This document shows, in pieces, positions 42,769 through 63,407 of a stretch of 64,000 nucleotides of DNA. Made by a program: the position numbers and the translations under genes. The DNA comes from Clostridia bacterium. Its GTDB lineage: Bacteria > Bacillota > Sulfobacillia > JAJZYS01 > JAJYTV01. The DNA is taken from positions 5,669-69,668 of the forward strand of contig DAIBJA010000078.1 in assembly GCA_027420455.1 (NCBI GenBank). Reading direction: 5' to 3'. Position 1 is the stretch's first letter, and each line of letters begins with the position of its first letter. Under the pieces are notes generated by a model. The model did not search any database. It saw only the letters and a program-made list of their open reading frames with translations, and was not told the origin of the DNA.

Positions 42769-42864
42769 TGGCGGGAGCAGGTGGGAATCGAACCCACCGC
42801 GGACCGTAAAGCCCGCCGGCTGGATTTGAAGTCCAGGGGCTGCACCAGCAGGCCGTCTGTTCCC
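42769..42864 (-). tRNA. selC: tRNA-Sec (anticodon UCA), CCA encoded
   Basis: The minus strand reads GGGAACAG-AC-GGCCTGC-TGGT-GCAGCCC-CTGGA-CTTCAAA-TCCAG-(long variable arm CCGGCGGGCTTTACGGTCCGCGG)-TGGGTTCGATTCCCA-CCTGCTCCC-G-CCA. It has an 8-bp acceptor stem (one A.C mismatch) and a long D stem with a 4-nt loop, and resembles E. coli selC. Confidence 0.85.
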
Positions 42865-49172: not shown

Positions 49173-49330
49173 TTCAACCGCTCCTTTGCCGCGGTCCTCC
49201 CGCGATCAGAATGCGTACAGTATAGCACACGCGTCGGCGGCAGGCACTTGCACACGGCCCCGCCGCGTGCGACACTCGGTCCAGTGATCGTACGCGATAC
49301 CCGCGACGCATCGCCATGCAAACACATACT

Positions 49331-49500
49331 AAGCGCCAGCACTCGCCTCTAGAGGCGAGTGGACGAGGTGGGGGATCTCGGAGCTTTCGGCGGGTGACCC
49401 CCGGTTCGCCTGGACCGTCAAAGACCTCACAAAGCCAGGGAGCGATCCCTTGGGGGAAAAGGGTCGGCAGGCGAGGGACGCAATTGCGCACCCCTCTATC
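49331..49500 (+). ncRNA. glmS ribozyme (GlcN6P-dependent self-cleaving riboswitch)
   Basis: Sequence runs A/AGCGCCAG - P1 hairpin CACTCGCCTCTAGAGGCGAGTG - GACGAGG - TGGGGG...TTCGGCGGGTGACCCCCGGT...CAAAGCCAGGGAGCGATCCCTTGGGGGAAAA. It matches the conserved core as I recall it from Bacillus. The 3' limit is approximate. Confidence 0.85.
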
Positions 49501-49554
49501 TGCATGGCCTGCGCAGCTATCGCGTGAACATGCAGCGAAGGGGTGTTTTTGCTT

Positions 49555-51357
49555 ATGTGCGGCATCATGGGCTATGTCGGCCCAAGACCCGCAGCCGAAG
49601 TGCTGCTGGGTGGTCTCAAACGTCTCGAATACCGTGGCTACGACTCGGCAGGCATCGCGTTGGCCGACCAGGGCAAGATCTACCTGCAGCGCAAGGCAGG
49701 CGCCTTGCGGATACTGGAGGACGTGCTTGCCAAGTCGCCTCCTCCTTTGAGCCACATCGGCATCGGTCACACGCGTTGGGCGACGCACGGAGGTGTCTCG
49801 GACCGTAACGCCCATCCGCATACCGACTGCAACGGCGAGATCGCCATCGTGCACAACGGAATCATCGAGAATGCCGACGAGCTGAGGGCCGACCTTCTGG
49901 CAGCGGGTCATGTCCTTCGCTCGGAAACAGACTCTGAGCTTGTCGCGCACCTCCTTGAGACAGGACCCGCCGATCTGCGTCTTCGCCTGAGCGGAGTCGC
50001 GCAACGCTGCGAAGGAGCTTACGCCCTGCTGGTGATGGACGTGCATCAGCCAGATCGCCTGATCGCCGTGCGGCGCACAAGCCCCATCGCCATTGGTGCG
50101 ACGGCGGACGAAGCCTACGTGGCATCCGGCGCGATCGCACTCGCCCCGTGGCTCGGCGAATGCATCTACCTCGACGACGGCGAGATCGCCGACATCCGCC
50201 CAGGCAAGATCGAGGTCTTCCGCCTGACCGATCTGGCACCGATCGCCAAGATGCTGCACCCGATCGAGGGTGACGGGGAGTTGCCCGATGCGGGCGAGCA
50301 CGGCACCTTCTATCGCAAGGAGCTCATGGAGCAGCCCATCGCCTGGCGCCGCGTCATGGCCGGCAGGCTGGACGACCAGGGTCAGGTCAACCTGCGCGAG
50401 GACGGCATCGACCAGGAGTTCCTCCGAACGGTACAGCGCGTGGTGTTCCTTGCGATGGGCTCCTCACTGCACGCGTGTCAGATGGCGGTGGAACGCCTCG
50501 GCGATATCGTGGAACTTCCGGCGCAGGCCGAGCTCGCAAGCGAATTCCGGGACACGAGGACTTTCCTCGAGCCCGGCACGTTGGCGATCGCCGTCAGCCA
50601 GTCTGGCGAGACGATCGATACCCTCGCCGCGCTACGCCACGCGCGCAACTTGGGTGCAAGGATCCTGTCGCTAGTGAACGCACCTGGGTCTACCATCGCC
50701 CGTGAGAGCGACTATGTGCTCGACCTGAGGGCAGGATTCGAGATCTCCGTCGCATCAACCAAAGCCTTCACCACCCAGGTCATCGCGCTGGAACTCCTCA
50801 CGGCCGCCCTTGCGCAAGCCAAGGGGCGTCCTCTGCCACCCACGGACCTGCACGCGCTGCGCGCCGTGCCAACGGTGGCAGAGGACTTCCTCGACGACTT
50901 CGAATTGCCGAAGGAGTTGGTCGCGACCTGCGCCGGAGCTCCAGGTGTGATCTTTCTCGGCCGGGGACAGGACCTGAGCCTCGCGCGCGAGGGCTCACTC
51001 AAGCTCAAGGAGCTCTCGTACGTCTGGAGCGAGGCGTTCGCCGCGGGAGAGTTGAAGCACGGGCCGCTTGCACTCGTCGACCAGCGGGTTCCCGTGATCG
51101 TCTGCGTGACCGATCCGACACACGCGGTGAAACTCCGTAGTTCTCTCGCAGAGGCAACCGCCCGCGGTGGCTTTGGTGTGGCCATCGGCGCCGACTTGGG
51201 CGCAACGTTGCAAGTGACCCTCCCCCTCAAGGAGCGAATTGGCGCCTACCTCCTGGGTGCGCTACCGCTGCAACTTCTTGCGGTGGAGGTAGCTGAGTCC
51301 AGGGGGTGCCCAATCGACCAACCCCGTAATCTAGCGAAATCGGTGACGGTCGAATAG
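49555..51357 (+). CDS. glmS: glutamine--fructose-6-phosphate aminotransferase
   Basis: MCGIMGYVG provides the N-terminal Cys nucleophile. Two SIS domains follow, and the C-terminus reads ...PRNLAKSVTVE. Confidence 0.97.
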   Translation: MCGIMGYVGPRPAAEVLLGGLKRLEYRGYDSAGIALADQGKIYLQRKAGALRILEDVLAKSPPPLSHIGIGHTRWATHGGVSDRNAHPHTDCNGEIAIVHNGIIENADELRADLLAAGHVLRSETDSELVAHLLETGPADLRLRLSGVAQRCEGAYALLVMDVHQPDRLIAVRRTSPIAIGATADEAYVASGAIALAPWLGECIYLDDGEIADIRPGKIEVFRLTDLAPIAKMLHPIEGDGELPDAGEHGTFYRKELMEQPIAWRRVMAGRLDDQGQVNLREDGIDQEFLRTVQRVVFLAMGSSLHACQMAVERLGDIVELPAQAELASEFRDTRTFLEPGTLAIAVSQSGETIDTLAALRHARNLGARILSLVNAPGSTIARESDYVLDLRAGFEISVASTKAFTTQVIALELLTAALAQAKGRPLPPTDLHALRAVPTVAEDFLDDFELPKELVATCAGAPGVIFLGRGQDLSLAREGSLKLKELSYVWSEAFAAGELKHGPLALVDQRVPVIVCVTDPTHAVKLRSSLAEATARGGFGVAIGADLGATLQVTLPLKERIGAYLLGALPLQLLAVEVAESRGCPIDQPRNLAKSVTVE

Positions 51358-51381: not shown

Positions 51382-51480
51382 TGTGAGAGGGGATTTGAAA
51401 TCCGCCCTGGGGAAAAGAAATCCGCCGGGGGATTTAGAGATCCGCCCTGGGTCGGTTGTGAGCGGGGATTCGAAGCCGAG
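51382..51480. repeat. TGT-initiated block of three 20-bp periodic repeats (GARATCCGCCSKGGG) plus duplicated TGTGAG(A/C)GGGGATT(T/C)GAA, 24 nt downstream of the glmS stop; candidate transposon end / att site
   Basis: Read directly. TGTGAGAGGGGATTTGAAATCC starts at 51382. Repeat units start at 51397, 51417 and 51437. A second TGTGAGCGGGGATTCGAAGCC starts at 51457. Confidence 0.5.
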
Positions 51481-51981: not shown

Positions 51982-52049
51982 ACTCCGGACAATCCGGAGT
52001 ACGTCAACGCCATCGAGGGGCCAGGAACACAGTTCCTGGCCCCTCGATG
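51982..52049. other. two adjacent perfect hairpins (8-bp stem at 51982-52000; 18-bp stem with 3-nt loop at 52011-52049)
   Basis: ACTCCGGA-CAA-TCCGGAGT and CATCGAGGGGCCAGGAAC-ACA-GTTCCTGGCCCCTCGATG. Confidence 0.6.
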
Positions 52050-52057
52050 TTCGGATA

Positions 52058-52232
52058 GCCCATCTGTCCATGAGCGACCTCAGTTCAGGCCGGTCACCAC
52101 TGCGATTAGGTAGATACCGCAACCTCTGTCTGCACGAGACCCCAGTGGAGGCCTGCCCAATAGCCCTCCGCCGTTGCGGTAGTCCTTACTGCAACCTCTG
52201 TCTGTGAGAGACCTCAGCGCAGGAGTCGGCCT
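52058..52232. repeat. three degenerate ~35-nt direct repeats (period 61 and 72 nt), each with GTC(C/T)-N5-(C/A)GAC mini-hairpin
   Basis: TCTGTC cores at 52064, 52125 and 52197. Unit consensus is approximately ACCTCTGTCTGNGAGAGACCTCAGNGNAGG. Pairwise identity is about 70-80 %. Confidence 0.5.
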
Positions 52233-52458: not shown

Positions 52459-52878
52459 TCAACACTTCTGCCGATCCGAGATGGCCGTACGAACTTTTTC
52501 GACGCACCCTACAAGGTCGAGCCTTAGTTCATGCTCCCAAAACCGCAGCACCCGCCAGCGGTTGGCTCGCAGGCGTGCTGTGACGAGAGCATCGCGAAGC
52601 CGGTTCCTTGCCACCTTGGCCTGCCAGTACTCGGCGTTGCCCTTGGGCGCTCGGTAGCAGTCGGGACATCCATGCCAAAAGCACCCGTCCACGAACACAG
52701 CGACCTTTGCTCGCCCGAACACGATGTCGGGCTTGCCATCCAGAGTCTTCAGGTTTACCCGCCAGCCCCTTACGCCTGCACGCCACAAGGCTTTGCGCAA
52801 GGCCAACTCGGGCTGGGTGTTCTTCGAGGCGACCGAGCGCATGATCTCGGAGCGGGTGAGCACCTTCGATCGACTCAT
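52459..52878 (-). CDS. vsr: very short patch repair endonuclease
   Basis: Reads RSEIMRSV.SKNT.PE...PDIVF...KVAVFVDGCFWHGC...W..K...N..RD. ATGA overlap with dcm. Confidence 0.9.
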   Translation of the reverse strand: MSRSKVLTRSEIMRSVASKNTQPELALRKALWRAGVRGWRVNLKTLDGKPDIVFGRAKVAVFVDGCFWHGCPDCYRAPKGNAEYWQAKVARNRLRDALVTARLRANRWRVLRFWEHELRLDLVGCVEKVRTAISDRQKC

Positions 52879-54125
52879 CCCGCAGCGCCTGGTTCCGCCT
52901 CTTGGCCGACATCGCCGAGCAGGGCGCGGGCGTAGGCCATGGCTAACGCGCGCGCCAGAAGCGGCGGAACAGCGTTGCCGACGTGGCGCTGCTGCGTTTC
53001 CGTGACTCCAAAGAACCTGAACCGGTCGTCAAAGCTCTGAAGCCGTGCCGCCTCCCGCACGGTCAGGCTTCGCAAATCGCGGTAGTGCGTGAAGCGCCCG
53101 CTTCCCGGGTTGGAGAAGCTTGTGGTGATTGTCTGAGCGATTCCGCGGCGGTGGAGCCGAGCATACGCCTGGCTGAAGTAAGTGTCGGAGAACCGCTGGT
53201 CGTCGGCCAACTCCTGGTTTCTGCTACCCTCTTCGATGATGCGGATCTTCTCCAGAAACTCCTTCGAGTGCCTGCGCGCCTTGTGGTTGAACAGCAAGCT
53301 CGACCCCTGCCTGCGCTCTGCCTGGAACCTTGTCAGCGCAGGACCCCCATACGGCACGGCCTCTGCCCCCTCCCCTGGTTGCAAGGGCGGCAAGTCGCCG
53401 ATCGCGTCTTCTACCGTGATGTAGCTGCCGGCGATGCGCTGGATCTCTCCGCCGCCGGCATCGTCTTCGGACGGCATCAGCATGCGAGCGTTGGTGAGCC
53501 TTGGGTACGACCCGCGCGGGATGAATGGCGTGCCCAGCCCGGCGTTCCTGCGAAAGCCTACCACGATCGTCCGCTGCCGAAGCTGGGGCACGCCATACTC
53601 GTTGGCGAACACTAGCTCCGCCTTGGTGTCGTAAAGCGGCTCCACGAGGAGCGCGAACCTGTCCAGCAGATACTCACCGGTCTGGGACAGCAGAGTGGGG
53701 ACGTTCTCCATCAGGAACATGCGCGGGCGCAGCTCCAACAAGAGTGACGCGTAATCGAAGATTCGCTCGTTCCGAGGGTCGTCTGGCGACCACTTCTTCA
53801 AGCGCGAGAACCCTTGGCACGGGGGTCCGCCCACAACGATGTCGATGTCCTCGTCGTTCGAGAGGCGCGCGTGCCTGCGAATCTCGGCAGCGAGTGCTGC
53901 GGCGGAAGAACCGGCGTGGGTGTTGAGGTCTTGGACCCAGTAGGCAACGCGAGGGTGGTTCTGCTTGAACGTCGCCGCCGCCTCGCCGTCGACGTCCACG
54001 AGAAGGCGCACGTCGTAGAGCGGCGGTGCGCCGTCCTGCTTGGCGCTCATGAACCCCAGGCTGAATCCACCCACTCCAGCGAACAGGTCCACCATTGAAA
54101 GCTGACGGTACGCCACGTGCCTCAC
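52875..54125 (-). CDS. dcm: DNA (cytosine-5)-methyltransferase
   Basis: DLFAGVGGFSLGF (motif I), GGPPCQGFS (IV), ENV (VI), PQLRQRTIVVGF (VIII), GNAVPP (X). Start taken at GTG 54125, which overlaps the upstream TGA. ATG 54095 is an alternative start. Confidence 0.9.
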   Translation of the reverse strand: MRHVAYRQLSMVDLFAGVGGFSLGFMSAKQDGAPPLYDVRLLVDVDGEAAATFKQNHPRVAYWVQDLNTHAGSSAAALAAEIRRHARLSNDEDIDIVVGGPPCQGFSRLKKWSPDDPRNERIFDYASLLLELRPRMFLMENVPTLLSQTGEYLLDRFALLVEPLYDTKAELVFANEYGVPQLRQRTIVVGFRRNAGLGTPFIPRGSYPRLTNARMLMPSEDDAGGGEIQRIAGSYITVEDAIGDLPPLQPGEGAEAVPYGGPALTRFQAERRQGSSLLFNHKARRHSKEFLEKIRIIEEGSRNQELADDQRFSDTYFSQAYARLHRRGIAQTITTSFSNPGSGRFTHYRDLRSLTVREAARLQSFDDRFRFFGVTETQQRHVGNAVPPLLARALAMAYARALLGDVGQEAEPGAAG

Positions 54126-55960
54126 CCTTGGAAGAGGAAGTCCTTGAGGTCCTGTGCCGCGGCGTCCATGACGCGCTGCCGTATTTGGTCGATTGCCTGG
54201 TCGACGGCTTCTGGCGTGAGCGTGCCTTGCAAGCTGTACAAGGCGTCCTTGATGATGACGTCGACGTGCCTCTGAAAGAGGTATTCGCGCCAACGGTCGG
54301 AGTCCTGCCCTTCTCTGTCTAGGATGTGGCTTGCCAGCGGTCGGGTGGTGTTAATCCAGTAGTAACCGTTGTCGAAATCCTCCGGCCTCTGGTAGATCTC
54401 CGGCTGTCTGGGCAAGCACTGAAACGGCTCCGTGCTCCCAGGATGCTGCCAGTCGGCATCGTAGTTGGACAAAAGGACCTTCGGTGGACTGCTTGTCTTC
54501 TTGCTCTTGTCGCCGGCCCCAGCGCCCTGGTCACCGGATGGCCGAGGCTCACCCGACGGCGGGCGTTCATGGCCGCGTTCCCCGCCATCCTTACCCTGGT
54601 GGTCCGTGCCTTCGCCGCCAGACGGGTCAGCGGTCCCGCCAGGGATGTCCTGCCCCGCCCCGCCCGGCCCGCTTCCGCCGCCCGGCTCGTCGCCGCCAGA
54701 CTGGATCTCCCTTTGGGTGCGCGAAACGAAGCGCGAGGTAAAGTCGTTGAGCAGGTGGTTGTACTGTGCGGACTGCTGGAAGTCTCGCTCCTGCTCGTGC
54801 TGGCGGTCAAGGTCCATGAGCTCCGAAGCCAGATCCTCGACCTTGTTCTTCACCCACGCGAGCAGCTCATCCGTGAGGGCATTCTGCGCCAGCTTCTCCC
54901 TGTCGTTGCGTACGCAGTCCAACGCTTCAAGCGCGGGGCACTCGCACTCGCCGAAGATCGTCTCCGCCGCCGCGCGGCCTGCCACTACGCCCATCTCGCC
55001 GATCTTGTGGGTGGCCACGCAGCTGTCCTCGCACAGGAAGTCAACGGCATTCTGTGCAGCGCGTTCCCCCACGAGCGCGATGTTCGACACCCGAAGCTTC
55101 AACACGCCTGGCAACTGCGTTCCGCCCAGCGTGAGATCGATTGGGTCCTCCGTATCTCCAAAGGTGTCGGGGATCGCGAACTCCACCGGCTTCTCGTACC
55201 CAAGGCGCAGCGGGAGTTCCTCCGGCTGCAGCCTTACCATGGTGTCCCGGTACCGCACATAAACCGGGCGGCGCTGCAGCAGTCTGCTAACTTGCGGGTG
55301 CATGCGCACTTTCGACACGATCGTCTCCACGGTCGCCCTGCCACGAAACTCCTTGGGCTGCCGCCCTACGACAACCGTGAACCCGAGCTCTCCCCGCTCG
55401 ATGCTGCCGCGAATCTCCGCGGGCGCCCAGTCTAGGCTCACGTTCGCCTTCTCAAGGGCTTGCTCCAACGTCATGGGAACGTCCTTGAGGCCTTGCCTGT
55501 AGCCGTACGCGCCTCCATCAAAGCCGAAGGCGTTGAGCTTGCCCGCCCGGTAGGTCAGGAGGGTAGATGAGTTGAACATCTGCCGCATGTAGAGCTTCCC
55601 GCCGTTGCCGTGGCCTCCGAGCGTCCTTCTAAGACGCTGCCTTCCGGCGTGAACCGGCCTGCGCGCGGCTTCGGGATCGCCCCACCGCTTGAAGGAGCTG
55701 TCGATTCTTTCCTTGGTCATGCCAACGAAGTCCACGCAGCGAAAGACGCTGTCCCTCTTGGGTTTCGCCACGTCAAAGTCGAGCACGATGGCTTGCAAGC
55801 CCTCCGGGATCTGCTCGTGATTGTAAGCGTCGATGGAGTTCTTGATCCACTCGGCGAGTCCCTTAGGGTGGCTGCCCGCGAAGTCCACACCCACGACGTC
55901 TAGAAAGTGATCGTCAAATACGTTTCCTTCAGCGACAACGGGTCCTACCTCGATCGGCAA
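54122..55960 (-). CDS. GHKL-superfamily (MORC/MutL-like HATPase) protein with low-complexity linker and unassigned C-terminal domain
   Basis: N-box LAEWIKNSIDAY, DxGxG-like CVDFVGMT and G2 box GGHGNGGKLYM. A ~75-aa G/P/D/E-rich linker follows, then a ~115-aa C-terminal domain (YYWINTTRPLASHIL...). Confidence 0.7.
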   Translation of the reverse strand: MPIEVGPVVAEGNVFDDHFLDVVGVDFAGSHPKGLAEWIKNSIDAYNHEQIPEGLQAIVLDFDVAKPKRDSVFRCVDFVGMTKERIDSSFKRWGDPEAARRPVHAGRQRLRRTLGGHGNGGKLYMRQMFNSSTLLTYRAGKLNAFGFDGGAYGYRQGLKDVPMTLEQALEKANVSLDWAPAEIRGSIERGELGFTVVVGRQPKEFRGRATVETIVSKVRMHPQVSRLLQRRPVYVRYRDTMVRLQPEELPLRLGYEKPVEFAIPDTFGDTEDPIDLTLGGTQLPGVLKLRVSNIALVGERAAQNAVDFLCEDSCVATHKIGEMGVVAGRAAAETIFGECECPALEALDCVRNDREKLAQNALTDELLAWVKNKVEDLASELMDLDRQHEQERDFQQSAQYNHLLNDFTSRFVSRTQREIQSGGDEPGGGSGPGGAGQDIPGGTADPSGGEGTDHQGKDGGERGHERPPSGEPRPSGDQGAGAGDKSKKTSSPPKVLLSNYDADWQHPGSTEPFQCLPRQPEIYQRPEDFDNGYYWINTTRPLASHILDREGQDSDRWREYLFQRHVDVIIKDALYSLQGTLTPEAVDQAIDQIRQRVMDAAAQDLKDFLFQG

Positions 55961-55962
55961 CC

Positions 55963-56562
55963 TTAGGCACTCCCCTTCCGCTTTTCGATGATATTTGCGT
56001 ATCTGCTGACCATGTGGTCGTGGAACTTCCTCAGTTGTTCGGCACGTGGATGGCTAACCTCTTCTGCCGCCTTGACGGCGCCCTCCACGGTGGTCAGACG
56101 GCCGAGGAAGCCGCCGCGGTCGGTGCGCACTGTGGCGGCCAAATAGTAGTAGAGATCCGTGTCCACAACTTGGTCTGCCTTGCCGCCAGCGAACAATTGG
56201 TAGGCCTCCAGGCGCAAGATCCGGTCGATCTCATGCTCCTGGCTCCGGTCCAGCCGCTTCGCGGGTCCTCTCGGCGCATGCCCAGTAGCTCCCGCGAGCC
56301 GTGCAGCCTCTTCGAAGCCCTTGTCTGTCAATGAAAACCGCTTCTCCCGCGACACAACGAGCCCGCGGCTCTTCAATGGGCCGTACAGAGGCTTGTGCAC
56401 GTCCGAAGCGTCGGGGAACTCGGGGTACTTGCGCAGGGAGAAGTCCTGGGGGAAGCGCTTGAAGGCGCCCACCACGATGTCGTCGTAGTCAATGAACTGC
56501 GGCTCGCCGGCTGACAGCTCATACATGACGGCCAGGATCTCGTCAGCCTTGTTTCCCGGCAC
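55963..56562 (-). CDS. hypothetical protein (possible N-terminal winged-helix), operon partner of GHKL ATPase
   Basis: GAAGGAGGG lies 6 nt before GTG 56562. 199 aa. No family recognised. Confidence 0.55.
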   Translation of the reverse strand: MPGNKADEILAVMYELSAGEPQFIDYDDIVVGAFKRFPQDFSLRKYPEFPDASDVHKPLYGPLKSRGLVVSREKRFSLTDKGFEEAARLAGATGHAPRGPAKRLDRSQEHEIDRILRLEAYQLFAGGKADQVVDTDLYYYLAATVRTDRGGFLGRLTTVEGAVKAAEEVSHPRAEQLRKFHDHMVSRYANIIEKRKGSA

Positions 56563-57016
56563 GCGAAGCCCTCCTTCTTCGTGAAGTGCGGGGGGCCGAG
56601 ACGCGACCCGTGTCGACGGCCCGATCCCGCCCGGCCAGACCGTACATGCCCCTGGCCGTCCGTACAAAGCGCTTGTCCTTGCCGATGTGAGCCAACAGGT
56701 TCGCCCCCGGATTCACCCCGGAGAGCTGAGCGCCGTAGCGGCCGAGTTGCTGCGCCATCTCCACGTAGTGCATCGGCTGCCCGACCTGTGTCAGCAATTC
56801 GAACGCGGCATCGGACACTGTGCGTGAGCTTGGCGCCTCTGCCGCTGGTCTGTCCGTGACCTCAGCGAGCTCAAGAAGCTTTCGGACGTGCAATAGCTGC
56901 TGCTCCCGCTGGTCGATTTTCGCTTGCAGTGCCGCCTTGTCGGCATTGAGCTGCGCTAGCTCGCCCCGGAGTTCCTCCGCCCATCGTTGCAGCACTTCAG
57001 GGCCCAGGTCCTCCAT
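56543..57016 (-). CDS. coiled-coil + HARE-HTH domain protein
   Basis: SDAAFELLTQVGQPMHYVEMAQQLGRYGAQLSGVNPGANLLAHIGKDKRFVRTARGMYGLA matches the HARE-HTH pattern (..pm...ei...i............tl.a.l..d.rF.r..rG.ygL). AAGGGGG precedes ATG 57016. Confidence 0.65.
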   Translation of the reverse strand: MEDLGPEVLQRWAEELRGELAQLNADKAALQAKIDQREQQLLHVRKLLELAEVTDRPAAEAPSSRTVSDAAFELLTQVGQPMHYVEMAQQLGRYGAQLSGVNPGANLLAHIGKDKRFVRTARGMYGLAGRDRAVDTGRVSAPRTSRRRRASRAGKQG

Positions 57017-57038
57017 CCGGCCGCCCCCTTGCATTGGC

Positions 57039-57067
57039 ATGTTAGACCATTTTCAACGCATTGTCAA
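57039..57067 (-). promoter_or_regulatory. candidate promoter of the HARE-HTH/GHKL/dcm/vsr operon
   Basis: On the minus strand: TTGACA, 17 nt, TAACAT. This excludes the listed ATG 57040 as the start codon. Confidence 0.5.
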
Positions 57068-57220: not shown

Positions 57221-57376
57221 TCAGGAGAGGCTAGAGTCGTCCTTCCTGCCGGCACCCTCTTCGTCGTCGAACGTGATCTCCACCTGGTCGCCGATCGCAA
57301 TCTCCATAAGTTCTCTCAAATCGAACGGCAGCACGATGCGCCCATCCGCGTCTACCTGCACGATGTACTCTCGCAC
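57221..57376 (-). CDS. AbrB/MazE/SpoVT-family small DNA-binding protein
   Basis: Reads VQVDADGRIVLPFDLRELMEIAIGDQVEITFDDE. GGGAGG lies 7 nt before GTG 57376. No toxin partner is visible. Confidence 0.55.
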   Translation of the reverse strand: MREYIVQVDADGRIVLPFDLRELMEIAIGDQVEITFDDEEGAGRKDDSSLS

Positions 57377-57722
57377 AATCCGGCCTCCCTGCCTGGAATC
57401 CAACAAGCCTCCACCATTCTAGGTCGCGCCCGTCTTCCCTTCCACGTTATGGATCTCCCACTTGCAGGCTTGGTCGAGTTCGCCAAGCGGCAATGCGGTC
57501 CCTCGCATGGTTGGGCGCCTCCATGCAGGCTTTCAAGTCCGCCCGGTGAAGCACGTGCTGGCATCCGCGAGGTGGATTTCTACCCCACGGGTCCGACGCA
57601 GGTGAGCGTGGAAGCGGTCGGCGAGATGGTGCGGCTCGGGATGAGCGACGGGTGTTCCACTACAGGGGCAACGGCGGCTACTTCCCTGGATCGACGATCA
57701 AACTACGCCGGGAGAACTAAGG

Positions 57723-61151: not shown

Positions 61152-61502
61152 TGTCAAATATTCGTGTCATACATTTGTCATACAACACCTGCGACAGCTG
61201 CGCCAGAAGCGGCTTTCGGGAACAGCCTATACCTACCATGCGCCATCGCAGAGCCCATTTCGCCCTTTGTGAGACCAGATCGGCCGAATGGTAACAATTA
61301 GTGTCATACGTTGTTTATACAATTCCCCTGAAAGCCGCGCTAGGAGCGGCTTTCAGGTACGTCCTTTTCCTTCCATTCGACACAGTGGAGCGCGTTTTGG
61401 GCCGTTTTCGGACCTGTACACCGAGGGCCGCGTCAAATCTGTCATATGTTTGTCATACAAAACAGCCGCAAGCCATGCCAGGAGCAGCTTTCGGGCGCGC
61501 CC
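61152..61502 (+). repeat. Tn7-like transposon end: terminal TGT plus three direct ~65-75-nt repeat units (period 137/138 nt) each containing a GTGTCATAC(A/G)TTTGTCATACAA-type putative TnsB-binding site
   Basis: Units begin at 61164, 61301 and 61439, each preceded by GTCAAAT/GTAACAAT. All are in the same orientation, are AT-rich within GC-rich DNA, and lie upstream of tnsA. Confidence 0.6.
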
Positions 61503-62603: not shown

Positions 62604-63407
62604 GTGACCCGGAAGAGGAAGCCGCCTGGAACCATCCTTGACCACGGCGACCGGTATCAGCCCGCCATCCAAGCCCATGACATTCGCAGTCCACACTCCA
62701 AGCGCACCCGAATCTGGGGCGTCAAGACGCATCGTTTCCACCACCTGCTCTCCCAGCTCGAATGCAGCGTTTACTTCCAGGCGGAGCGCGACGGGAGGGT
62801 GAAGGACATCCAGGAGCAGTGCGAACTGAACCGTGACGAGACCGTGATGATCGCTGCTCGGCTGGGCTACCGACACCCTGCCGGCCAGCACGCCATGACC
62901 TCCGATTTCATCATCACCGTAGTTGCTCATGACGGGTCTACCCGTCAAATCGCTATACACGTAAAGCACGCTTCAAAGTTGTCCCGCAACATGGAATGGA
63001 TCAACGTGGAGGCCTATTATTGGAGTGCGATGGGCATCCCTCTTTATGTGATTACGGAGCTGGATATCGAGGCTGAAGTCATCCATAACGGTCAATGGCT
63101 GTACTTCGTGAATACGGCGGAGTTCGACCGCCTCAGTGCGTTGCCCAACTTCGGGGAGATAGTCTCCTCGCTGACCGCCTACGTGACCTCAGGGCGCAAG
63201 CTGTCGATGGCCTGCGAACAGGCTGAACGCGACTACGGACTGCCTCCCAACTCTGGCTTGCTGATGGCGAAAGTGCTCATTCGCGAACGGGGATGGGTCA
63301 CCGATCTCTCAGTCCGAATTCGACTCGGTAGGCCGTTAGTCTTGCTGGAAGACAGAACTCAGGAGTGGCTCAAGGAGGTAACGAACCGTGAAACTGCGAC
63401 TGCTTGA
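62604..63407 (+). CDS. tnsA: Tn7-like transposition protein TnsA (restriction-endonuclease-like)
   Basis: AGGAGGG precedes GTG 62604. Motifs LLSQLECSVYFQAE (S.LE), TSDFIIT (tPDFlv) and IHVKHASKL ((E/Q)VK) are in the TnsA order. Confidence 0.75.
   Translation: MTRKRKPPGTILDHGDRYQPAIQAHDIRSPHSKRTRIWGVKTHRFHHLLSQLECSVYFQAERDGRVKDIQEQCELNRDETVMIAARLGYRHPAGQHAMTSDFIITVVAHDGSTRQIAIHVKHASKLSRNMEWINVEAYYWSAMGIPLYVITELDIEAEVIHNGQWLYFVNTAEFDRLSALPNFGEIVSSLTAYVTSGRKLSMACEQAERDYGLPPNSGLLMAKVLIRERGWVTDLSVRIRLGRPLVLLEDRTQEWLKEVTNRETATA

Follow-up and report, generated by a model that had tools for sequence, protein, structure and literature searches.

A 64,000-nucleotide stretch of Clostridia bacterium DNA (GenBank assembly GCA_027420455.1, contig DAIBJA010000078.1), hereafter the window, carries at positions 52459-57067 of its minus strand a five-gene operon, here lettered A to E, at the heart of which lie a small winged-helix protein (B) and a predicted ATPase of the MORC/paraMORC type (C). 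Comparison with related loci shows that the conserved unit is the B-C pair, often accompanied by a C5-methylase, and not the five-gene set. We tentatively read the operon, giving this somewhat less than an even chance, as a non-classical restriction-modification-like module linked to 5-methylcytosine (m5C), whose effector would be an ATP-driven clamp. This reading is favoured by the MORC-like fold of C and its invariant ATPase motifs, the B-C pairing, the methylase link, the DNA-reading partners and the lack of a nuclease, as well as by the mobile or defence context (recombinases, VapBC, McrBC-like genes and the glmS/Tn7 hot spot) and the paraMORC precedent (PMC2292703). The five genes, in the order of transcription, are as follows.

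56543-57040, minus: gene A, DNA-binding protein with a coiled coil and a HARE-HTH (winged helix), 165 aa when started at ATG 57040
55963-56562, minus: gene B, 199 aa from GTG, N-terminal winged helix and C-terminal helical bundle
54122-55960, minus: gene C, GHKL+S5 ATPase, 612 aa, starting at TTG 55960
52875-54125, minus: gene D (dcm), C5 cytosine DNA methyltransferase, 416 aa from GTG 54125
52459-52878, minus: gene E (vsr), Vsr very-short-patch-repair nicking endonuclease, 139 aa

The five proteins

The domains of C were delimited from its motifs, its AlphaFold2 model, Foldseek comparisons and an alignment of 40 homologues, on which both the model and all statements on invariance in C are based.

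55286-55960, minus: residues 1-225, GHKL (Bergerat-fold) ATP-binding domain (motifs and Foldseek)
54881-55273, minus: residues ~230-360, S5-like transducer domain with GECxCP and NDR motifs (Foldseek alignments)
54497-54880, minus: residues 361-488, a 60-residue helix (361-420) and a linker (424-488) (AlphaFold2)
54122-54496, minus: residues 489-612 and the stop codon, conserved C-terminal domain (AlphaFold2 and alignment)

Motif I of the GHKL domain, EWIKNSIDA, fits the pattern ExxxNxxD, with E37 and N41 invariant and D44 nearly so. In motif II, DFVGM within VDFVGMT, D77 and G80 are invariant and the first Gly of DxGxG is replaced, while the ATP lid, GGHGNGGK (G115-K122), is invariant throughout, as is the stretch G193-F194-T195-V196. 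The S5 region adds four invariant residues (G337, C339, N352 and R354) and three nearly invariant ones (E338, C341 and D353). With motifs that look catalytically intact, C is predicted to bind and hydrolyse ATP. None of this registers with family models: C matched nothing in Pfam (E <= 0.1), NCBIfam, PHROGs, PADLOC v2 or the PDB sequences, the MORC-type Pfam model HATPase_c_3 fails to detect it, and no precomputed Pfam domain lies on its homologues among the matches listed. A profile of the Hsp90 N-terminal domain gave a weak match in which motifs I and II are aligned. The AlphaFold2 model (predicted local distance difference test, pLDDT, 82.7) was more telling. Its best PDB matches in Foldseek are MORC2 with DNA, MORC3 and MORC4 (E 3e-10 to 1e-8 over ~430 columns), with target-normalised TM-scores of 0.47-0.53 against the MORC2/3/4 ATPase modules; Hsp90/TRAP1 and SMCHD1 come next, and the best 50 of the 284 PDB matches at E <= 0.001 are all GHKL proteins. 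As modelled, C is shown to be a GHKL+S5 ATPase of the MORC/paraMORC type with a catalytically intact look. A preliminary description of this DNA, made from its letters and open reading frames (ORFs), had named the three GHKL boxes of the 612-aa protein and expected it to model as a GHKL fold; the boxes are there, with invariant key residues, and the fold was recovered, on support that is structural only.

Beyond the long helix, residues 424-488 are rich in Gly, Pro, Asp and Glu and are modelled as disordered (pLDDT < 50), and residues 489-612 form a folded C-terminal domain (pLDDT 80-95) with nine invariant residues (P493, S498, D503, Q524, R525, D528, W535, I536 and N537), close to the linker of ~75 aa and domain of ~115 aa that had been described earlier. 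This domain matched nothing in Pfam or PADLOC, and its sole lead in the PDB is a weak, order-permuted profile match to ribosomal protein uS13/S18 (E 0.04). Some longer relatives of C (~700-770 aa; P0078, P0099, P0104, P0119, P0173, P0184 and P0188) carry a Big_2 Ig-like domain inserted into the linker that follows the long helix. A topoisomerase-like assignment, with the C-terminal DxD as a Toprim and B as a 5Y-CAP-like domain, was considered and rejected, because the strand/helix alternation of Toprim and its upstream Glu are missing and no Topo VI occurs among the Foldseek matches listed.

Protein B had been put down as matching nothing recognizable, and searches of Pfam, NCBIfam, PHROGs, PADLOC and the PDB sequences were indeed empty. 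Its AlphaFold2 model (pLDDT 90.3) consists of a winged helix at residues ~5-92 and a helical bundle at 106-196. Foldseek searches with this model (PDB and BFVD) returned generic winged-helix matches only, all with E > 0.03, and no nuclease fold; weak matches to MukF and MotA were judged not meaningful. On this model B is a winged helix joined to a helical bundle, with no nuclease fold. Eleven residues are invariant in the alignment of its homologues (D28, Y46, P50, D51, D54, H56, K57, Y60, K74, E111 and D136), and in the model the invariant residues cluster in and around the recognition helix of the winged helix.

The remaining three genes had been identified as HARE-HTH, Dcm and Vsr, and profile searches agree. 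A matches Pfam HARE-HTH (PF05066) over residues 73-136 at a borderline score (E 7.5e-6, 26.7 bits against a cut-off of 25.9), and the same region aligns with the HARE-HTH repeats in the profile of a partner protein, L7, described below. D is recognized by Pfam DNA_methylase (E 2.4e-50), by TIGR00675 (E 3.8e-41, above its cut-off) and by PADLOC MTase_II (E 1e-81), and its translation carries the DLFAGVGG, GGPPCQGFS and ENV motifs; E is recognized by TIGR00632 (127 bits against a cut-off of 97.85) and Pfam Vsr (E 4.5e-24). By sequence, D and E, coupled through ATGA, read as a canonical Dcm-Vsr pair. The only nuclease fold among the five proteins is that of Vsr, a mismatch nickase and not a restriction enzyme. 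No nuclease or helicase model of Pfam, NCBIfam, PHROGs or PADLOC v2 matched A, B or C, nor did PADLOC-DB v2.0.0 find in them a component of any named system, its sole match being a chance-level one to SIR2 (E 0.058). Two further statements of the preliminary description, that the operon encodes no classical restriction enzyme and fits no named defence system, are thereby upheld, the latter within PADLOC v2.

Distribution of the B-C pair, its methylases and its partners

An exhaustive profile search recovered 489 cluster representatives of C at E <= 0.001 among 1.84 billion proteins, which makes C a small and sharply delimited family. More than 160 relatives are full-length, at 35-44% identity, and every relative whose source annotation was checked is labelled 'hypothetical protein'. 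In a scan of one genome per species, relatives were found on 186 stretches of genomic DNA (from ~190 uncultured bacterial species); 80 of these stretches, nearly all labelled as metagenome-assembled genomes, were retrieved for comparison. The locus counts that follow refer to 81 non-redundant loci, the window's own contig being excluded, whereas neighbouring genes were clustered over all 82 loci for the ORFs within 6 kb of C. The loci come from Verrucomicrobiota, Acidobacteriota, Planctomycetota, Solirubrobacterales, Ignavibacteria, Myxococcota, Gammaproteobacteria and many lineages of the Candidate Phyla Radiation (CPR).

In 76 of the 81 loci C is immediately preceded by a co-directional homologue of B, and two of the five loci that lack it are truncated by contig ends. 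No orthologue of A was found in any of the other 81 loci. As to whether the five-gene neighbourhood is kept elsewhere, the B-C pair and a frequent C5-methylase are, whereas the full set and the window's HARE-HTH gene are not. Relatives were absent from the phage collection searched, and the plasmid collection held one distant relative only, on the Ensifer adhaerens conjugative plasmid NZ_CP118613.1 (L087, 59460-62548; pCTYH.Ch1_3), where an 800-aa C-like gene (29% identity over residues 34-381) is followed, in reversed order, by a B-like gene (229 aa, E 3e-10). Both are annotated as hypothetical. Their neighbours include McrBC-like genes, one product being an McrB-like ATPase of the AAA_5 type, and a plasmid gene for an N6/N4 methylase whose N-terminus is NikA-like. 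The pairing of B with C thus outlasts a change in gene order and a large divergence, and this sister pair, coming from a cultured organism, offers an experimental handle.

A C5-methylase is encoded within 4 kb of C in 53 of the 81 loci, and in none of them in the distal flanks at 4-8 kb. Vsr is present in 38 of the 81 and tracks Dcm rather than B-C. The linked methylases fall into three sequence classes and occupy three placements. In 20 loci the gene follows the pair directly in the same direction, which is the window's arrangement, in 7 it lies upstream and is transcribed divergently, and in 15 it lies downstream in convergent orientation; the three classes and three placements together argue for repeated, independent recruitment of a C5-methylase. 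In the close relatives L002 (9973-11559), L007 and L017 the gene directly downstream of B-C encodes a Dcm::Vsr fusion of ~530 aa. Clustering of the neighbouring ORFs revealed no recurrent nuclease or helicase, and neither did the 142 neighbour ORFs of the 24 loci lacking Dcm, the only methylases there being two of the N6_N4 type. In a Solirubrobacterales locus (L031:7071-7322, plus strand) a short ORF directly 5' of B has a borderline GIY-YIG match of 22.6 bits, at the cut-off; it is the sole nuclease-like neighbour seen. Two Ignavibacteria-type loci have the order VapB-VapC-L7-B-C amid housekeeping genes and lack a methylase.

In 64 of the 81 loci the B-C pair is flanked by a variable DNA-binding partner with multiple helix-turn-helix (HTH) domains, of which three kinds were distinguished.

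L7, 500-1100 aa: RNA polymerase alpha-subunit C-terminal domain (alpha-CTD), sigma region 4 and several HARE-HTH-like repeats; 35 loci
H9: DnaA C-terminal HTH, sigma region 4 and two HNH-like zinc ribbons; 23 loci
SeqA_N plus Mrr_N protein; 6 loci

Examples of L7 are found at L013:4723-7410, L029:4940-7405 and L035:9893-11863, and of H9 at L063:10092-11165 and L003:10054-11181. The two HNH-like CxxC...CxxC modules of H9 lack the catalytic His in their consensus and are probably inactive zinc ribbons. The combination of alpha-CTD, sigma and HARE-HTH was reportedly noted by Aravind and Iyer in 2012. The three kinds of domain in L7 are known targets of phage takeover factors or binders of promoter DNA. 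The closest relatives of the window's system (L002, L007, L008 and L017) have no recognizable partner gene upstream of B and consist of B-C-Dcm(::Vsr) only. The HARE-HTH gene itself is not conserved, other HTH-rich proteins standing in its place in most loci, while its role may be. Serine recombinases occur near the module in 15 loci, and a pair of MazE-like and PIN genes (VapBC-type) lies immediately 5' of L7-B-C in 13 (L016, L020, L022, L024, L029, L033, L037, L038, L043, L045, L049, L052 and L086).

Layout of the operon and its place beside glmS

Direct reading of the sequence bore out all five minus-strand genes and their coupled junctions. A and B overlap by 20 nt, the TGA of A (56545-56543) lying inside B, whose start GTG 56562 is preceded by the Shine-Dalgarno sequence GAAGGAGG; a longer start for B is available at TTG 56667. 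B and C are separated by a gap of 2 nt (TAA-gg-TTG). C and D meet in GGGTGA, where the TGA stop of C and the GTG start overlap as GTGA, and D and E in GGATGAG, where the TGA of dcm and the ATG of vsr share ATGA. Dcm may instead begin at ATG 54095 (MVDLFAG..., 406 aa), the choice of an independent gene caller, in which case a gap of 26 nt would replace the GTGA overlap. Other features of the surrounding sequence are listed below.

57039-57067, minus: candidate sigma-70-like promoter, TTGACA-17-TAACAT (promoter scan and sequence reading)
57221-57406, minus: small AbrB/MazE-type ORF upstream of the promoter, called as MazE_antitoxin (weak) by the gene caller
49321-49476, plus: glmS ribozyme/riboswitch, Rfam RF00234, 71.7 bits, directly 5' of glmS
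49543-51357: glmS, with the ribozyme upstream
62604-63407: tnsA
63388 to the window end: start of tnsB

The promoter proposed in the preliminary description was found again by the scan, although sites of this kind are not significant in number (2 within 10 kb, with 1.1 expected). The -10 hexamer runs into ATG 57040 of gene A; if the promoter is real, this makes ATG 57016, which gives a protein of 157 aa, the more likely start. ATG 57016 has a GGGGG Shine-Dalgarno sequence upstream and was also picked by the gene caller. The small AbrB/MazE-type ORF, which weakly matches the MazE-like gene of the 13 loci mentioned above, is a possible regulator whose membership of the system is uncertain.

The operon had also been described as mobile cargo of an island at the glmS attachment site, and here the evidence points elsewhere. 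Three 21-nt repeats TGTCATACATTTGTCATACAA at 61165, 61302 and 61440 (61165-61495 in all, 137-138 nt apart) face tnsA, with tniB/tnsC following on the source contig beyond the window; the repeats resemble TnsB-binding sites and would mark the right end of a Tn7-like element. That element lies 9.8 kb from the glmS stop, whereas the usual distance for Tn7 is ~25 bp, and a second Tn7 end was sought near glmS and no matching end was found. Since the operon is situated between glmS and the end repeats, it falls, within the limits of the window, outside the Tn7-like element. It occupies an insertion hot spot and is not demonstrably Tn7 cargo. Its GC content is indistinguishable from that of its surroundings. 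The spacer between glmS and the operon is 1.1 kb of repeat-rich non-coding DNA, with three tandem 20-nt repeats (GGGGATTTGAAATCCGCCCTGGG-like) at 51389-51451, just after the glmS stop, and, at 52011-52049 and 52115-52223, an 18-bp perfect inverted repeat and a pair of 37-nt direct repeats lying 72 nt apart; these might be remnants of an attachment (att) site or an element end. Elsewhere in the window, ARAGORN and Rfam agree on a selenocysteine tRNA gene at 42769-42864 (minus strand).

Possible mechanism, alternatives and known systems

In plants and animals, gene silencing linked to methylation depends centrally on MORC ATPases, whose descent from bacterial restriction-modification systems has been proposed. 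To our knowledge, no methylase-linked bacterial MORC-type system has apparently been characterized experimentally. In the mechanism that we favour, Dcm would mark the host DNA with m5C, and Vsr would repair the T:G mismatches that arise from m5C deamination. HARE-HTH has been proposed as a domain that tells modified from unmodified cytosine; the winged helices of B and A would read the methylation state and load C, which would dimerize on ATP like MORC, MutL and Hsp90 and close as a clamp on unmarked DNA. Contacts are likely to be made by the strongly conserved C-terminal domain of C and by the helical bundle of B. The outcome would be either entrapment or compaction of the DNA, blocking replication and transcription, or its transfer to a nuclease encoded elsewhere. 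An effector that compacts or clamps DNA is consistent with the evidence. A more specific version, in which a nuclease-free B-C clamp loaded by winged-helix methylation readers topologically entraps or compacts unmethylated incoming DNA as an immune or silencing machine, and represents a prokaryotic forerunner of MORC-methylation silencing, we regard as possible but doubtful.

Several observations weigh against the clamp mechanism. A nuclease-free effector is argued from absence, and the invariant Asp, His, Lys, Gln and Arg residues in the C-terminal domain of C and in B could form an unrecognized active site. The presumed toxic part precedes the methylase in the gene order, no member of the family comes from a cultured organism except the distant Ensifer pair, and a reading role for A is not general, since the closest relatives lack the HARE-HTH gene. 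Seventeen of the 49 loci with full flanks have no linked C5-methylase, which does not fit strict restriction-modification logic unless an unlinked methylase serves. Marking by methylation in cis is thus frequent and not obligatory, and the methylation-marked system of the preliminary description needs revising to that extent. The core machine is therefore B and C with a DNA reader, to which cis-linked methylation is a common and not a universal addition.

The first alternative is that B and C constitute a new ATP-dependent restriction endonuclease, with its active site in the C-terminal domain or in B, from which Dcm protects the host. The invariant polar residues of the C-terminal domain (D501/D503, Q524, R525, D528, N537, R558, R564 and K571) and of B (D28, D51, D54, H56, K57, E111 and D136) could be read in this way, the tight operon with Dcm resembles a restriction-modification system, and a GHKL module often comes fused or linked to a nuclease, examples being MutL, topoisomerases and paraMORC3/Shedu (PMC2292703, PMC12137116). 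However, neither domain matches a nuclease family by profile or by fold, the invariant residues of B at the recognition helix fit DNA contact better than catalysis, the C-terminal domain's only lead is its weak likeness to a nucleic-acid-binding ribosomal protein, and a linked methylase is missing in about a third of the full-flank loci. We consider such an enzyme unlikely; if it were real, it would be a new class of restriction enzyme tied to m5C.

Two further alternatives do without defence, and to each of them we give only a slight chance. Eukaryotic MORCs compact and silence DNA, and B-C with its HTH partners might likewise be a nucleoid-structuring or silencing device of mobile elements, using m5C where available and serving as an epigenetic regulator or as an aid to maintenance or partition. 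That the top structural matches of C are MORC2-DNA complexes, that the partners include domains from RNA polymerase (alpha-CTD), sigma factors (region 4) and the DnaA C-terminus, and that some methylase-less loci lie amid housekeeping genes would suit such a device; its patchy spread across many phyla, with so few representatives in so large a protein collection, would not, nor would the swapping of methylases and the links to recombinases and toxin-antitoxin genes that are typical of defence genes, and no conserved target genes adjoin the module. Alternatively, C could assist Vsr in the manner of MutL, B being the subunit that binds DNA, and would then enhance the correction of T:G mismatches by the very-short-patch route and so cut the mutational cost of a mobile Dcm. 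C, Dcm and Vsr are translationally coupled, B-C is directly followed by the Dcm::Vsr fusion in L002, L007 and L017, and C has its GHKL+S5 module in common with MutL, which in E. coli stimulates Vsr (cited in PMC2292703). Yet Vsr is found in fewer than half of the loci and follows Dcm, not B-C, the 17 full-flank loci mentioned above have B-C with neither Dcm nor Vsr, and the HTH-array partners, recombinases and toxin-antitoxin neighbours suit a conflict system better. Least probable of all, and by our estimate very improbable, is an infection sensor in which partner domains (alpha-CTD, sigma region 4 and the DnaA C-terminus) mimic the host targets of phage factors and the binding of such a factor activates the B-C ATPase, Dcm being secondary: the unusual make-up of L7 and H9 does equal known phage targets, and the module exists without a methylase, but the window's system has only HARE-HTH, its closest relatives have no partner, and the domains in question may equally serve just to bind DNA.

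Returning to the clamp mechanism, the B-C family would provide a clean test case, with two core genes, repeated joining of a C5-methylase and no nuclease or helicase seen, for the question whether a GHKL clamp alone can discriminate and neutralize unmethylated DNA. The family is invisible to Pfam, NCBIfam and PADLOC v2, and defining it would improve annotation in many uncultured phyla.

Among known systems, CglI / NgoAVII-type restriction combines a C5-methylase with a multi-protein, NTP-hydrolysing restriction part in which DNA binding and motor functions are separate; it relies on a superfamily 2 (SF2)-type motor and a nuclease of the phospholipase D (PLD) family, whereas the window's operon has a GHKL ATPase and no nuclease that could be seen. 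A classical Type II restriction-modification system shares with it the methyltransferase, but the cognate restriction endonuclease was not found beside it. E. coli offers a third parallel, having the canonical, ATGA-coupled Dcm-Vsr pair and, in MutL, a GHKL+S5 ATPase that could act with Vsr; there, MutL stimulates Vsr (cited in PMC2292703). C, on the other hand, lacks the C-terminal dimerization/endonuclease domain of MutL and has no NCBIfam or Pfam MutL match, and B-C is widely found without Vsr.

The closest published relatives are the MORC/paraMORC ATPases with GHKL and S5 domains, whose operons with cytosine methylases and Vsr were defined computationally by Iyer, Abhiman and Aravind in 2008 (PMC2292703), so that the link of such ATPases to DNA-modification neighbourhoods, cited in the preliminary description, was already in print. 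With paraMORC1-5, C shares an N-terminal GHKL domain with intact ATP motifs, the S5 domain and a family-specific C-terminal extension, and the B-C family shares the operons of the cytosine methylase/Vsr kind and the sporadic distribution across phyla. In most of the published paraMORC operons there is, in addition, a gene for an SF2 helicase and a nuclease-like domain, be it of the restriction fold, HNH, TIR or another kind (PMC2292703); none was found in the window's operon, and the B-C family has the obligate winged-helix partner B. Individual families differ further: the alignment of the C-terminal domain of C has no invariant His for the HxH of paraMORC5, the domain has no Pfam or PADLOC match to the E-D-ExK/DUF4263 nuclease of paraMORC3, and a TIR domain as in paraMORC4 was matched neither in C nor in the scanned partner and neighbour ORFs. 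For paraMORC1 and paraMORC2 the comparison was by description only, paraMORC1 being characterized by its C-terminal extension and paraMORC2 by an ExxxH motif in S5; an invariant ExxxH is not seen in the S5 region of C. ParaMORC3 has been shown to be a Shedu defence nuclease (PMC12137116). Shedu type I-D, for example VcSduA, resembles C in being a GHKL ATPase; it acts in phage defence and is predicted to form a dimeric clamp (PMC12137116). Shedu consists of one protein only, which ends in a DUF4263 nuclease of the PD-(D/E)xK kind and has neither a methylase nor a winged-helix partner, and the PADLOC Shedu models do not match C.

Eukaryotic MORC2, MORC3 and MORC4 (PDB 9cdj, 5ix2 and 7k7t) are the best structural matches of C. 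They share with C the GHKL+S5 module and the long helix that follows it and, with the B-C family, a functional link to DNA methylation and the lack of a nuclease. They differ in sequence (9-13% identity), in the HATPase_c_3 match that C lacks, and in the CW and chromo-like reader domains that C also lacks, reading in the B-C system being left to separate winged-helix proteins encoded, in the window, in a bacterial Dcm/Vsr operon. A literature search on bacterial MORC/paraMORC and related systems found no paper naming the B-C family. The general idea has been known since 2008 (PMC2292703); the B-C family is itself an uncharacterized and conserved member of this wider circle of MORC-like ATPases.

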